Counted from the stretch's first letter, positions 777 through 49,982 are shown. The stretch: DNA of 51,824 bases from Patescibacteria group bacterium (GCA_022711495.1 JAKLEX010000001.1:502882-554705); one strand, 5' to 3'. Translations and numbers: made by a program. Notes: generated from the sequence alone by a model not told the origin.

Positions 777-1091
777 TCACAATATTTTCTTAACTTTAAT
801 GTGGTCGCCCTTTCTCTCCGGCGCCGAGGTCAAGATTTTTTCCTTATTGGCGGCACGCGAAGAAGTTTCTTTGTCGGCCCGAAAAACATTGCGAACGCTG
901 GCGCTTTCAAGGCGATTTTTAGTGCCGCTTTCGGCTTCGCCAACGGCGGACTTGTCATCGGAAATAGCATCTTTGATCTGCCCGACATATTTCAGGACTT
1001 CATCAATCTCCTTGGCGGTTTTTGCCAAATTTGATTCGAACATTTCTATCCGAGCCAAATCGGCGAATTTTTTAATATCTGCGGAGTTCAT
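777..1091 (-). CDS. gatC: Amidotransferase subunit C
   Basis: 104 aa, starts with LADLARI-like motif, ends with APERKGDHIKVKKIL; adjacent to gatA. Confidence 0.9.
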   Translation of the reverse strand: MNSADIKKFADLARIEMFESNLAKTAKEIDEVLKYVGQIKDAISDDKSAVGEAESGTKNRLESASVRNVFRADKETSSRAANKEKILTSAPERKGDHIKVKKIL

Positions 1092-1130
1092 AAAAGCTAT
1101 AATAACACGGGCGTTTTAAACTAAAAACAT

Positions 1131-3134
1131 TCAGATTAGAAGTTCAAAAAACTCCTTTTCAGACAAAATCTTAATGCCAAATTTCTGGGCCTTCACAAGT
1201 TTGGACCCGGCGGCTTCGCCGACTACCACAAAATCAGTCTTTTTTGAAACCGAACTTGAAACGCTTCCGCCAGATTGTTTAATAGCGTTTTTGGCTTGAT
1301 CTCTGGACATAGATAAAAGAGTTCCGGTCAAAACAACTGTTTTGCCAGCAAAAAATCCGCTGCCGGTTTTTTGGAGTTTCAGTATTTTAATTTCTTTCAA
1401 CAGATCATTGAGAGCTTTAACTTTCTTTTTGTCGCGAAACCATTCAAAAATTGACTTTGCCACGACCGGACCGATTTCGTTAATTTTCTCCAAATCGGCC
1501 AACTCGGCCGAGCGAATTTTATCTATGTGACCAAAGGCGCGAGCAAGTAATTCGGCTGTCTCTTCCCCGACATTATTTATTGAAAGACTTGTAATCAATC
1601 TCGGTAAAGTAATTTCTCGCGATTTGTCTATGGACTGTAGCAAATTATTTATCGATTTTTCTCCAAATCTCGGCAAAGTTTCCAAATCGCCTTTTTTCAA
1701 AGTAAAAATGTCTGCCGTATCTTGAATTAAGTTATTTTCAATTAGCAGATCAATCATCTTCGGACCAAGACCGTCTATATTGAACGCCGGTTTTGAAACA
1801 AAATAGCAGAGTCTTCGGCGCTTAATGTTGTAAGAATCTTTATTGGCACAACGATAAGCCACCTGACCGGGAATTCTTTCTATTCGCCCATCGCCACCAC
1901 ACTCCGGAACACGACTTGGGAAACAAAAAATCTTGGCGCCAGCTGGACGAAGCTCTGTCAGAACTTTAACTATTTGCGGAATAACATCACCGGCCTTTTG
2001 CAAGACAACCGTGTCGCCGATTCTGACATCCAGGCGCTTGATTTCATCTTCATTATGCAAAGTCGCGCGGGAAACCGTGGATCCGGCGATTAATACTGGT
2101 CGCAAATGAGCTACCGGAGTGATAACTCCAGTTCGTCCAATCTGAAAAGTGATGTCCTCAACGACGGTTGTGACTTGCTCCGCTGGAAATTTAAAAGCTA
2201 CGGCGAATCTTGGCGCTTTGCCGGTAAAACCCAGCGTCTCTTGATATTCTCGTTCGTTGATTTTAACAACGACTCCGTCCAATTGATAATCTTCGGAATC
2301 TTTTTTCTTCTGCCAAGTCTTCCAAAAATCAATAATCTCGTTTATGTCCCGACAAGGCCGGTAGTTTGGATTAACCTTAAAACCAAACTTTTCAAGTTTC
2401 TGCAGTTCTTCAATTTGAGTTCGCGGCAATTTATCTATTCGGGCGATATCGTAGATAAAAGATGATAAGTTTCTTTTGGCGACCACGGACGGATTCAGTT
2501 GGCGCAGAGTGCCGGCGGCCAGATTTCGTGGATTAGCGTAAGTTTCCTCACCGGCAACGGCCAATTCTTTGTTGATCTTATTGAAATCTTTTTTTGACAG
2601 ATAAATCTCTCCTTCAACGATCAAGTCTATCGGCGCGGTCAATTTCAATGGGACGGATTTTATGGTTTTGACATTGGACGTGACGTCCTCGCCGATCTGA
2701 CCGTCGCCACGAGTAGCGGCGGTTTTTAAAACGCCCTTTTCATACTCCAAAACGATTTTCAATCCGTCAATTTTTAATTCGCAATCGTATTGTGGAGAAA
2801 CTTTTTTGCCCAACTTTTTCTCAAGCATTCTTTTAACCCGCTCGTCAAAATCTCTGGCCTCTTGTTCATCAAAAATATCATTGAATGACCATTGTGGGAC
2901 TTTGTGAGCCACTTTTTCAAATTTATTCAGTGGCCTGCCCGACACTTTTTGACTGGGAGAATCGTCTGTCCGCAAATTCGGAAATTGATTTTCAATATTA
3001 ATTAGTTCTTGCTCAAGAGAATCATAGGCTGTGTCTGAAATCTCCGGATCATCCAAAACATGATAACGATGGCGGTGATATTCAATCAATTCGCGCAGCT
3101 TCTTAAGGCGTTTTTCAGCGTCTTTTTTGTCCAT
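1131..3134 (-). CDS. ligA: NAD-dependent DNA ligase
   Basis: ELKIDG active-site motif, TRGDG, NPRN, QIGRTG, RATLHN and a C-terminal BRCT domain ([10 protein letters not shown]...[12 protein letters not shown]). Confidence 0.98.
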
Positions 3135-3166
3135 ATTCTTAACTGCTATTCTAAACCAAAAGACGG

Positions 3167-47891: not shown

Positions 47892-49034
47892 TCAAAAGTT
47901 CCACATTTTATCGCCATTCGGGAAATAGATGGTGATGCTCTCGTCGTGAATCAACCCGGTAGTAGCCTGACTAAGCGCCAATATCTGCCCGCTACTCAAA
48001 ATGGTATCATCGGCCATGACAAATGATTTTCCGCCTTGTTTTATCTCGTATCCGCCGATATTGACCTCTTTCCCGTCATTATTCTTTAACAACAAATCCA
48101 CACCTTTTCCACTATCGGATAGCTCAACTTTGACGTCCGGATCCGAGACGTAAATCTTCGTCCTGGCAACGGCCAAATCTTTACGGAATTTGGCGTTGAC
48201 GACGATGTTGTATTCTCCTGCGCGATCAAAAATATAAGATATTTTCCGTCCGCCCACCTCATGTCCGTCGCCCATTGACCACCGAGCCTTAACTTTTGTG
48301 TTTTCTTCCTGATTGTGGATCAGTTCTAGTTTTATTGGAGAATTTACTGACGCAAGTCTCTCTCGACCGGCGGAGATTTTTAATTTTATCGTCGGTTTAT
48401 AGTTTGATAAGTCTGTTTGCGATTCATGCGAAGATCCGGAGCCGGTTTCGGTTGAAGATCCGGAATCATTGTCTGAATCGTCGGCGCCATCTTCGGAATC
48501 ATCCGAACTTTCGTCAGCGGCTTCGGTAGCATTAATTTCTCCGGGCGTCGGTGGCACCGGAATCCAAACCGAATCATTTAGTTGAAGAGAATTTCCTGTA
48601 TCGTTTCCGCCAAGTTCCGCCGAATATGTCACGGCGTCTTCAACTGCGCCGGCAGAATTAATTAATTTCAATTCCTCGCCGGTATTATTGAGAGAAAAGG
48701 CCGAATCAAAAATCGGCGCGGTAGTTCCCGAAATAAAATTGCTAAAATCGGCCAGAAACTTTTCCGGATTATCGGCGATAACGGCGCGTTGTCCGGCTTC
48801 TAAAATATTCGCGCCAGAATAGGCCGCGATTTTGTGATTAACGGCATTTTCAAATAATTTATAAGTCGTCAAATCAATGGCGCCCGCTCCATCATTGTAG
48901 ACCTCAGCCCATTCCCTGCCGGTATCAGTACCTGGCGGGTTATACATGATTTCGGTAAAGATTACCTGGGCGGAAGCAGCGACCGGCACTAAAAATAATA
49001 AGCAAAGTCCCACGAAAAAATTTTGTGCTCTCAT
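47892..49034 (-). CDS. Secreted lamin-tail-domain protein with acidic linker and PKD-like domain
   Basis: Signal peptide; IFTEIMYNPPGTDTGREWAEVYN; WSMGDG...FDRAGEYNIV. Confidence 0.8.
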   Translation of the reverse strand: MRAQNFFVGLCLLFLVPVAASAQVIFTEIMYNPPGTDTGREWAEVYNDGAGAIDLTTYKLFENAVNHKIAAYSGANILEAGQRAVIADNPEKFLADFSNFISGTTAPIFDSAFSLNNTGEELKLINSAGAVEDAVTYSAELGGNDTGNSLQLNDSVWIPVPPTPGEINATEAADESSDDSEDGADDSDNDSGSSTETGSGSSHESQTDLSNYKPTIKLKISAGRERLASVNSPIKLELIHNQEENTKVKARWSMGDGHEVGGRKISYIFDRAGEYNIVVNAKFRKDLAVARTKIYVSDPDVKVELSDSGKGVDLLLKNNDGKEVNIGGYEIKQGGKSFVMADDTILSSGQILALSQATTGLIHDESITIYFPNGDKMWNF

Positions 49035-49111
49035 GGGAACACTTATAAACCGCCGGCCTTAAATCAGTTTAAAGTTTTAATCAATCCCGCGGGTCTAGTG
49101 AAAAAGAGGTA

Positions 49112-49948
49112 TTACAGACCCCTTAGGAAGAGAGTTTTTGTTTCGTAGCGATTCAACCTAGAAGTATAAGAATTATAATCCGCGTCCGAGTTATCGGTAT
49201 TCCATAAGATTTCGGTTAAAACCATTCTTTGCGCTGTATTGGAAGCACCCGGATCGGCCTCCAACTCAACCATCACAGTAAATTTCTCCGTCTGCCCTCT
49301 AGAAACTTTGTAGTTTCCATTACCTTGTCTTTTTGAAGAAGGCCCGGTGAAAGAAGAAGAGGTGGAAAAATTAGCCAAGGATTCGCTGAATTCATAACTG
49401 GCGCCTCCGATATACAAGTCGTCATCGCCAGCCGTCACTTCAAAATTTATCTCAAAGTGACCTATGTCTCCTTCGCCGGCTTCATCGGCCATAAAAACTT
49501 CATAAGTGTCATCTTCATCGTTGATAGAAAATTCGCGCGACGTGCCGGAATTGTCGTCATCGTCGTCGTCTTCGTCATCATCCTCGTCATCCTCATCATC
49601 CTCGTTGTCATCTCCATCATCAGTAACTATCGAAACGCCAGCTGCCACAACGGCAGCTCTCGTGATAGGACCGAAGTATCCAGCGGCTGGTGCAATGCCA
49701 CTAGCAGCTTGGTATGAAGCCAAGGCAGCTTGTGTCAAAGAACCAAAGTATCCCATTGATACGCCGGCTGGCATAACAAGGTAACCCTTTGATACTAAGA
49801 AAGCTTGCAATTCAGCTACATCAGATCCTGTTGATCCGATGGTTAAATCTCTTGTGTAAGCAGCGTCAGCGGCTGGAATTGCAACTACTGCTAGTGCAAC
49901 GACAGCTACGAGTACTGCTAAACTCTTTACCCAGATTTTCATTTTCAT
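49112..49948 (-). CDS. Peptidoglycan-binding-domain surface protein, short paralogue
   Basis: Signal peptide, RDLTIGSTGSDVAELQAFL...GYFGSLTQAAL...GYFGPITRA, D/E-run linker and one C-terminal beta domain. Confidence 0.8.
   Translation of the reverse strand: MKMKIWVKSLAVLVAVVALAVVAIPAADAAYTRDLTIGSTGSDVAELQAFLVSKGYLVMPAGVSMGYFGSLTQAALASYQAASGIAPAAGYFGPITRAAVVAAGVSIVTDDGDDNEDDEDDEDDDEDDDDDDNSGTSREFSINDEDDTYEVFMADEAGEGDIGHFEINFEVTAGDDDLYIGGASYEFSESLANFSTSSSFTGPSSKRQGNGNYKVSRGQTEKFTVMVELEADPGASNTAQRMVLTEILWNTDNSDADYNSYTSRLNRYETKTLFLRGL
49649..49916. repeat. 268-bp exact direct repeat, copy 1 (copy 2 = 51557-51824, runs off the window)
   Basis: Base-by-base identity at an offset of 1908 nt. Confidence 0.9.
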
Positions 49949-49982
49949 ATTATATATAATAGTATCAGAACGCGATAAATAC

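Follow-up and report, generated by a model that had tools for sequence, protein, structure and literature searches.

Probable start-proximal extended -10 promoters and predicted leaderless or near-leaderless mRNAs in a Paceibacteria genome whose 16S rRNA lacks the anti-Shine-Dalgarno motif

Among described systems, one of the closest to the one reported here is group C of the GeneMarkS-2 classification, which includes Actinobacteria and Deinococcus-Thermus and in which a Pribnow box lies 6-8 nt from the start codon and 25-50% of operons are leaderless (Lomsadze et al. 2018, PMC6028130). By convention, an mRNA is leaderless when its 5' untranslated region (UTR) is under 6 nt (PMC6028130). The anti-Shine-Dalgarno (anti-SD) motif of the 16S rRNA is present in only 48% of Parcubacteria, its loss overlapping with lineages that lack the ribosomal protein uL1, and Shine-Dalgarno (SD) helices are presumably not formed there (PMC9297842). 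No alternative mode of initiation was proposed in that study, in which the term 'leaderless' is absent (Tsurumaki et al. 2022, RNA 28:1041; PMC9297842). Here we describe a 51,824-nt stretch of a Patescibacteria genome (GCA_022711495.1, JAKLEX010000001.1:502882-554705; hereafter the window), in which TATAAT-like boxes sit directly upstream of many start codons, together with the genome to which it belongs. We propose that these boxes are sigma-70 extended -10 promoters, and that they would drive leaderless or near-leaderless mRNAs initiated via the start codon for around a quarter to a third of the genes. We give this reading a probability of about 0.78.

The genome shares with group C a Pribnow-type box, here at 6-10 nt, before about 28% of the genes that appear to be first in their operon, with predicted UTRs under 6 nt. 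It differs in several respects. Other genes in group C use SD sites and the 16S rRNA keeps its anti-SD, whereas the present 16S has lost CCUCC and SD-like motifs precede only about 5% of genes. The boxes here are mostly of the extended TGn type with an apparently weak -35, they also occur before genes located 0-30 nt behind a co-directional neighbour, and their modal spacing is 8 instead of 6-7. With the non-SD initiation of Bacteroidota (GeneMarkS-2 group B), the genome has in common scarce SD sites and A-rich sequence just upstream of the ATG in genes without a box. In group B, however, a motif that is not a promoter precedes all genes and most members keep (and sequester) the anti-SD, whereas the motif found here bears TGn and precedes a subset of genes.

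The genome (G000) consists of 565 kb in 12 contigs, with a GC content of 43% and a coding density of 90%, and the window corresponds to C1:502882-554705. We place the organism, on the basis of protein similarity, in the class Paceibacteria of the candidate phyla radiation (CPR), because the nearest protein relatives, found with a sugar transferase (Bac_transf) as query, come from Paceibacterota, Parcubacteria and Zambryskibacteria metagenome-assembled genomes. The gene set contained 548 non-overlapping open reading frames (ORFs) of at least 80 amino acids (aa), with 90% coverage, and starts were assigned to the first ATG as a heuristic rule. Strong boxes were called by a weighted score that combines TATAAT matches with a bonus for TGn, and the gap is the number of nt between the hexamer and the ATG. 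The genome G001, used for comparison, is from the same genus and collinear with the window, with 65-73% DNA identity in genes.

A sequence-only reading of the window had listed TATAAT-like hexamers before 11 start codons. In the 45-nt regions upstream of the long ORFs of the window, all 11 were recovered at the gaps it gave, and nine of them carry the upstream TGn of an extended -10 element, or ten if the murB box is read as TGtTACTAT. Its gene names gatC, pilD, WaaL-like (Wzy_C), murA-like and murB agreed with the Pfam matches. Across the genome, TATAAT with at most one mismatch occurred at gaps 6, 7, 8, 9 and 10 before 54, 62, 83, 50 and 39 per 1000 genes, respectively, compared to about 15 per 1000 per position farther upstream and about 6 per 1000 at internal ATGs (n = 5,485). 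Of the 516 ATG-initiated genes, 118 (22.9%) were preceded by a strong box at gap 5-10, whereas each of five other upstream intervals held one in 19-25 genes (about 4%), and the rate at internal ATGs was 1%. Dinucleotide-preserving shuffles of the proximal 40 nt yielded 12.9 ± 3.7 genes genome-wide (z = 28). A lack of enrichment over composition-matched sequence, named beforehand as grounds to abandon the idea, was therefore not what we found. In the window alone, 12 of 40 ATG genes had a strong box, against 1.1 ± 1.0 (maximum 4) in 200 shuffles. A count made without gene calls gave a similar picture, with an ATG 6-10 nt downstream of 43 of the 82 perfect TGnTATAAT boxes and about 1-2 per gap elsewhere.

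Genes that are likely first in their operon, defined by a divergent neighbour or a co-directional one more than 30 nt away, had strong boxes in 95 of 342 cases (28%), a lower bound that leaves out weak boxes. By context, the rate was 26% for divergent neighbours, 22-38% for co-directional spacers above 30 nt and 16% for spacers of 0-30 nt. Before genes with 0-30-nt spacers, 21 strong boxes were found at gap 5-10 versus 1-3 in adjacent intervals. Some tightly packed genes are therefore served by a separate promoter, located within the preceding gene or where it ends.

In extended -10 promoters, such as the galP1-type promoters of E. coli and those with the Gram-positive '-16 TRTG' motif, the TGn is contacted by region 3 of the sigma factor. 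The '-16 TRTG' motif was reportedly described in B. subtilis by Voskuil and Chambliss. Such promoters have a weak or dispensable -35. The boxes described here have in common with them the TG one base upstream of the hexamer, an enriched T two bases further up and a sigma factor with region 3. TGn was found before 69 of 156 start-proximal hexamers (44%), compared to 5.2% of 6,818 hexamers elsewhere. T was enriched at -5 and -3, which results in a TRTGn pattern and a consensus of T-R-T-G-n-T-A-T-A-A-T. A -35 element (TTGACA with at most two mismatches, 16-19 nt spacer) accompanied 44 of the 156 boxes, a slight excess over the 25-30 found at control spacers. The genome encodes a single primary sigma factor of 396 aa with regions 1.1, 1.2, 2, 3 and 4, and its gene, rpoD (C1, ~337 kb), is itself preceded by TGaTATAAT at gap 8. 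We consider the motif to be a sigma-70 extended -10 promoter and not a new ribosome-binding site. The difference with known promoters of this type is the genome-wide use directly abutting start codons.

For the comparison of G000 with G001 (about 70% DNA identity, median protein identity 71%), we used 45 reciprocal-best ortholog pairs that align at the N-terminus from the first residue onwards. These co-aligned N-termini support the annotated start codons. In G001, a strong box was kept before the orthologs of 16 of 17 box-bearing genes and occurred before none of the 28 others (Fisher p = 3e-11), and the gap was identical in 12 of the 16 pairs. Identity was 83-100% between positions -8 and +5, counted from the first base of the hexamer, 33-67% in the discriminator and 33-58% farther upstream. 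Examples seen side by side were pilD, the murA-like gene and the genes starting at 8240, 25954, 39674 and 40422. In G015, at a median protein identity of 55%, the association persisted (odds ratio 21, p = 6e-7). The retention of box and gap across orthologs therefore indicates selection on the boxes as well as on how far they stand from the ATG.

Transcription by sigma-70 holoenzymes preferentially begins at the 7th, 8th or 9th base past the -10 hexamer, on a purine that follows a pyrimidine. When the gap was 6, the nucleotide immediately upstream of the ATG was a pyrimidine in 90% of cases in G000 (n = 22) and in 85% of cases when four genomes were pooled (n = 131), which would fit a transcription start on the A of the ATG (Y-1/R+1). 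At larger gaps, a pyrimidine-purine step was also seen, though less pronounced, at positions 6-7 or 7-8 after the box, suggesting starts 1-4 nt before the ATG. While the motif, its position, its promoter features and its conservation are observed directly, we infer the transcription start site (TSS) and the initiation pathway from the promoter geometry.

The sole 16S rRNA gene of the genome lies within the window at 31758-33253(-). Its 3' tail, GGAUUAUAUAAAAAU (GGAUUAUAUAAAAAUACAAUCG; end ...GGAAGCUGUUCGUGGAUUAUAUAAAAAU), does not contain CCUCC, and the anti-SD loss noted earlier for the 16S of the window thus applies to the single copy in the genome. CCUCC was also found in none of 27 16S 3' tails from relatives of the same order, most of which read GGAWUAWUUCAA.... 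Within the class, GGAUCACCUCCUUU was kept in 7 of the 26 tails read. Following helix 45 (31737-31765(-)), a tail of 22 nt is conserved in G000, G001 and G002 (GGATTATATAAAAATACAATCG, one difference), after which the sequences diverge completely. This genus tail differs from the family and order consensus GGAWTAWTTCAARTGAA, and its conservation suggests a longer constrained mature tail or possibly a processing site. We considered that the 16S might continue past an intron to an exon with the anti-SD, and rejected this: the sole CUCCUU within 2.4 kb (31472) is inside the 3' end of an opposite-strand PKD-domain gene. A search downstream of the 16S for a group I intron or another RNA family gave no match.

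Ribosomal proteins showed a related pattern of absences. No match to uL1 (PF00687) was detected in G000, G001, G015, G060, G057 and G087, and uL1 was present in G058, G096 and 14 of 14 control genomes. The search for bS21 (PF01165) in G000 was also negative. Among the Paceibacteria genomes, bS21 was detected in one of nine without anti-SD (a weak match) versus five of seven with anti-SD (Fisher p = 0.035), which suggests that bS21 may have been co-lost with the anti-SD. Frequent absence of bS21 from Parcubacteria has already been published. Loss of bS1 was discarded as a correlate, as all 16 genomes tested encode a short S1-like protein (~380-410 aa; 377 aa in G000). The genome has in common with the anti-SD-lacking, uL1-lacking Parcubacteria subgroup (Tsurumaki et al. 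2022) the missing CCUCC(U), no detected uL1 and bS21, a short bS1 and the affiliation with Paceibacteria. What the present data add is a candidate mode of initiation, where none was proposed in that paper.

We compared the frequency of strong start-proximal boxes between genomes with and without anti-SD. The anti-SD-less genomes had such boxes before 22.8% (G000), 26.0% (G015), 15.9% (G060) and 14.4% (G057) of genes, compared to 7.3% (G050) and 4.2% (G078) in those bearing the anti-SD, with backgrounds of 1-4% (pooled Fisher p = 1e-22; six genomes, few and phylogenetically non-independent). The link to anti-SD loss drawn in the sequence-only reading is thus borne out as a difference in frequency, 14-26% versus 4-7% of genes, and not as an absolute one, since two anti-SD-bearing relatives share the architecture. 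We likewise rejected a simple dichotomy between anti-SD loss and leaderless promoters, as a crude count over 31 genomes gave no separation; the gene-based score, over four versus two genomes, gave a 3-6-fold difference. We conclude that leaderless promoters are found class-wide and are several-fold commoner where the anti-SD is gone, and the causal direction may run either way. The tail of G057 is also without CCUCC (GGAGTTTCAATTTTAAT...), yet about a quarter of its genes have SD-like 4-mers at -14 to -10, a larger share than in the two anti-SD-bearing genomes examined.

Sorting all genes by their upstream signal showed how much of the genome this mode covers. A strong proximal box was present before 21.6% of genes and a weak one before another 11.0%, about half of the latter being expected by chance. 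Candidates for translational coupling or re-initiation, which are co-directional with a spacer of 30 nt or less or overlap their neighbour, made up 27.1%. A further 14.8% had a strong box 11-80 nt upstream, consistent with a leader without SD, and an equal 14.8% had no recognised signal. The remaining genes had an SD-like 5-mer (5.1%) or no ATG start (5.7%). Genes without a proximal box tended to be A-rich at positions -3 and -2. The earlier proposal of a leaderless-mRNA regime therefore describes about 22% (strong) to about 33% (including weak) of the genes, while the rest divides into coupling (27%), leadered SD-less genes (about 30%) and AAGGAG genes (about 5%). Leaderless expression is the most conspicuous single mode but not the only one, and the word 'regime' overstates its extent.

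In the mechanism that we propose, the boxes would be read by the single primary sigma factor with little or no need for a -35. Transcription would start about 7 nt after the -10 hexamer, so that the first base of the mRNA would be the A of the ATG or lie 1-4 nt before it. These leaderless or near-leaderless mRNAs would be recognised via their start codon, by initiator tRNA and initiation factor 2 (IF2) on 70S or 30S ribosomes, and would not require the SD:anti-SD pairing that this 16S can no longer provide. The mode would extend to some genes 0-30 nt behind a co-directional neighbour, whose promoter would lie within this neighbour or at its end. The remaining genes would depend on coupling or re-initiation, on leaders that have no SD but are A-rich at -3/-2, or, for about 5%, on an SD-like motif. 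A more far-reaching version can be offered only tentatively, as we consider it possible but somewhat doubtful. In it, the choice of TSS would largely replace the ribosome-binding site in anti-SD-less Paceibacteria, and genes, many of them in apparent operons, would be expressed singly as mRNAs with 0-4-nt leaders, making start-codon-first initiation the default across a large bacterial radiation that is unable to use SD pairing. On this version, the relaxed 6-10-nt spacing particular to this genus would mean that the ribosomes tolerate, or that RNA polymerase makes, short 5' extensions of the kind disfavoured in classical leaderless initiation, and GC-rich accessory genes bearing SD sites would be read by a second mechanism.

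Several observations weigh against leaderless initiation at these genes. The modal gap in G000 is 8, with 22, 28, 28, 21 and 18 strong boxes at gaps 6 to 10, respectively, and only about 19% of them at the canonical gap of 6. G015 differs (chi-square p = 2e-4), with 49, 24, 15, 12 and 6 boxes at the same gaps, and a sharp maximum at gap 6 is likewise seen in G060 and G057. The relaxed spacing of G000 holds when only TGn-bearing boxes are considered; among the boxes listed for the congeneric G003, spacing looks similarly relaxed. Because of the modal gap of 8, many transcripts would bear 1-4 extra 5' nucleotides. The leaders of 0-4 nt predicted in the sequence-only reading are therefore what the box positions would give, though in many cases without a 5'-terminal AUG. 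In E. coli, short 5' extensions lower leaderless initiation. Initiation factor 3 (IF3), which was present in all 10 genomes tested, including G000, disfavours leaderless mRNAs in E. coli, yet it occurs in bacteria known to be rich in leaderless mRNAs. In addition, gene starts were set by a first-ATG rule instead of trained gene prediction, the share of genes that fit is limited to 22-33%, and about 30% appear to have leaders without an SD. Twenty-eight genes (5%) carry a canonical AAGGAG(A/G) at -12 to -8, and some initiation dependent on purine motifs may persist. Anti-SD-bearing relatives also hold some such promoters, and counts of the perfect pattern TGNTATAATN{6,8}ATG were alike in 24 anti-SD-less and seven anti-SD-bearing genomes (median 12.9 versus 15 per Mb; p = 0.85). 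This perfect-pattern metric is too GC-sensitive, as G060 has one perfect match yet strong boxes at 16% of its genes.

The same data can be read in other ways. The promoters may be real while the 1-4-nt leaders are translated through an SD-independent 30S pathway, relying on A/U-rich unstructured starts with the assistance of S1, in which case the proximity of the boxes to the ATG would reflect genome compaction and ribosomes would also load on read-through polycistronic transcripts. The modal gap of 8 with few boxes at gap 6, the 90% coding density and the retention of IF3 and of the 377-aa S1-like protein all agree with this, and such a pathway must exist anyway for the roughly 30% of genes that are leadered, SD-less and A-rich at -3/-2. 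However, relatives with the same type of ribosome peak at gap 6, where the TSS would fall on the A of the ATG and position -1 is a pyrimidine in 85%. Moreover, 12 of 16 gaps are identical at about 70% DNA identity, pointing to selection on the distance itself, and UTRs under 6 nt are conventionally leaderless (PMC6028130). We therefore regard this explanation as unlikely, although it merits some weight.

Far less probable, in our view, is that TATAAT is a replacement ribosome-binding site, perhaps doubling as promoter, that pairs with the remodelled 16S tail. The idea arises from the tail itself, which immediately past helix 45 reads 5'-AUUAUA-3', exactly complementary to UAUAAU; reverse-complementing the tail ATTATATAAAAAT thus gives a sequence that contains TATAAT. 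With its mode at 8, the gap is close to SD spacing, the motif also precedes genes with 0-30-nt spacers, and the tail is conserved over 22 nt within the genus. Yet G015, G060 and G057 share the motif although their tails (AUUAAUUCAAG, AUCAAUUCCAA and AGUUUCAAUUU, respectively) are not complementary to it. With the motif unchanged across genomes with different tails and no covariation between the two, we rejected TATAAT as a tail-complementary site. A connection between gap 8 and ATTATA-containing tails was also discarded, since the peak is at gap 6 in G007 and G087, both of which have tails of this kind. Furthermore, the tail offers no complement to the TGn that 44% of boxes carry, the extension that the tail predicts (TA+TATAAT) is rare (9 of 167), the relaxed spacing is equal for TGn-bearing boxes, and transcripts started from the boxes would not contain the box. 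We give next to no credence to an artefact of composition and annotation, in which A/T-rich intergenic DNA, TAA stop codons and the first-ATG rule mimic TATAAT boxes. Intergenic DNA is indeed A/T-rich, TATAAT includes a TAA that is in frame with the ATG at gaps 2, 5, 8 and 11, and there are small bumps at gaps 0, 1 and 3. But the 3-nt periodicity is absent at gaps 2, 5 and 11, shuffled sequences yield 12.9 genes instead of 118, the peak is identical without gene calls, TGn is enriched about 8-fold and orthologs keep the box.

Leaderless expression, the extended -10 type and anti-SD loss are each known. A literature search for leaderless expression in connection with Parcubacteria, Paceibacteria, Patescibacteria or CPR found no relevant published report, and the combination in this lineage is apparently unreported. 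How start codons are found in anti-SD-less Parcubacteria, which Tsurumaki et al. (2022) left open, would have a concrete and testable answer for a sizeable share of genes. Agreement from TSS mapping would extend leaderless expression from Actinobacteria and Deinococcus-Thermus to a major uncultured radiation. Such agreement would further suggest that anti-SD loss became tolerable through extensive reliance on leaderless mRNAs. In practice, gene finders that expect SD sites will misplace starts, and a group C-type start model should improve annotation. Expression of CPR genes in SD-dependent hosts would need added ribosome-binding sites.

The 28 AAGGAG genes have a higher GC content than the others (0.49 versus 0.42, p = 1e-9) and are short and stand-alone, with over 100 nt upstream in most cases. 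A cassette-like island 2-8 kb before the window holds three of these genes (C1:494761, 495750 and 500830). The sole SD-like case in the window is a GGAGGA before the gene starting at 10799(-). It is not kept in G001, whereas a TGnTATTAT box 12 nt upstream is, and the GGAGGA is probably there by chance. This box, TGcTATTAT (10812..10820, minus strand), is at gap 12 from the ATG at 10799 and represents a short-leader case with about 5-6 nt predicted.

The other boxes in the window vary in gap and in conservation. On the minus strand, the gatC box TGtTATTAT (1099..1107) is at gap 7 from the ATG at 1091-1089 and is not kept in the G001 ortholog. The pilD (prepilin peptidase) box TGtTATAAT (6412..6420) is at gap 8 from the ATG at 6403, and G001 has the same box and gap with a different discriminator. 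A bactofilin-domain gene (ATG at 8240) follows TGcTATTTT (8247..8255) at gap 6, kept in G001 with the same gap. Before the Wzy_C/O-antigen-ligase-like gene with TPR repeats (ATG at 13701), TGtTATATT (13712..13720) is at gap 10, with TGcTATATT at gap 8 in G001. TGtTAAAGT (19797..19805), a new box that the sequence-only reading did not list, is at gap 6 from the ATG at 19790 and identical in G001. It sits within the 3' end of the upstream gene (4-nt overlap), and coding constraint could account for this identity. The gene starting at 25954 has TGtTATAAT (25964..25972) at gap 9, and TGcTATAAT at gap 9 in G001.

The murA-like gene, which encodes an HTH domain and an EPSP-synthase/MurA-family domain, has TGaTATAAT (28229..28237, minus strand) at gap 6 from the ATG at 28222, and G001 has the same box and gap. 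Divergent to it, murB (plus strand, ATG at 28290) has two overlapping candidates at 28270..28281, TGtTACTAT at gap 11 and TATAAT at gap 8, where G001 has TGcTACTAT at gap 10. The 67-bp spacer between the two genes (28223-28289) thus contains back-to-back extended -10 promoters located 6-11 nt from their ATGs, both kept in G001. Also on the plus strand, TATATT without TGn (37387..37395) is at gap 6 from the ATG at 37402, and the upstream sequence is kept in G001.

The remaining boxes are all on the minus strand. TGaGATAAT (39683..39691), another addition to the earlier list, is at gap 8 from the ATG at 39674, and both TGn and gap are kept in G001 and G002. The gene starting at 40422 has TGtTATAAT (40432..40440) at gap 9, with the same box and gap in G001 and G002 and a diverged discriminator. 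In all three genomes a C/T-A step is retained at positions 6-7 after this box, while the rest of the discriminator varies. TGgTATAAT (41966..41974) is at gap 8 from the ATG at 41957. TATAAT without TGn (47781..47789), also absent from the earlier list, is at gap 5 from the ATG at 47775 and is not kept in G001. Lastly, TGaTACTAT (49959..49967) is at gap 10 from the ATG at 49948, with TGtTAAGAT at gap 9 in G001, and other A/T-rich hexamers lie nearer to this ATG.

As had been claimed, the regions upstream of pilA (gap 12) and of a 37-aa ORF are A/U-rich and without an SD site. This ORF (10985-10872(-)) encodes a product with 57% Arg/Lys (MVAKKRKAAKRKSAKRSAKKAKKSAKRSSRRKSSRRR), and TGcGATAAT is located about 40 nt upstream, with an A-rich leader that contains no SD. 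The rRNA genes of the window are unlinked, with the 16S gene separated by about 9 kb of protein-coding genes from the 23S and 5S genes (42140-45970(-)). The 23S gene (42321-45970(-)) is 3,650 nt long against a model of 2,925 positions, implying about 700 nt of insertions. The MurA-family protein (26705-28222(-); 505 aa) combines the EPSP_synthase fold with an N-terminal HTH_3 domain (XRE-type) at residues 14-66 and is 82% identical in G001. Such a fusion of a transcription-factor domain to a cell-wall enzyme is unusual.

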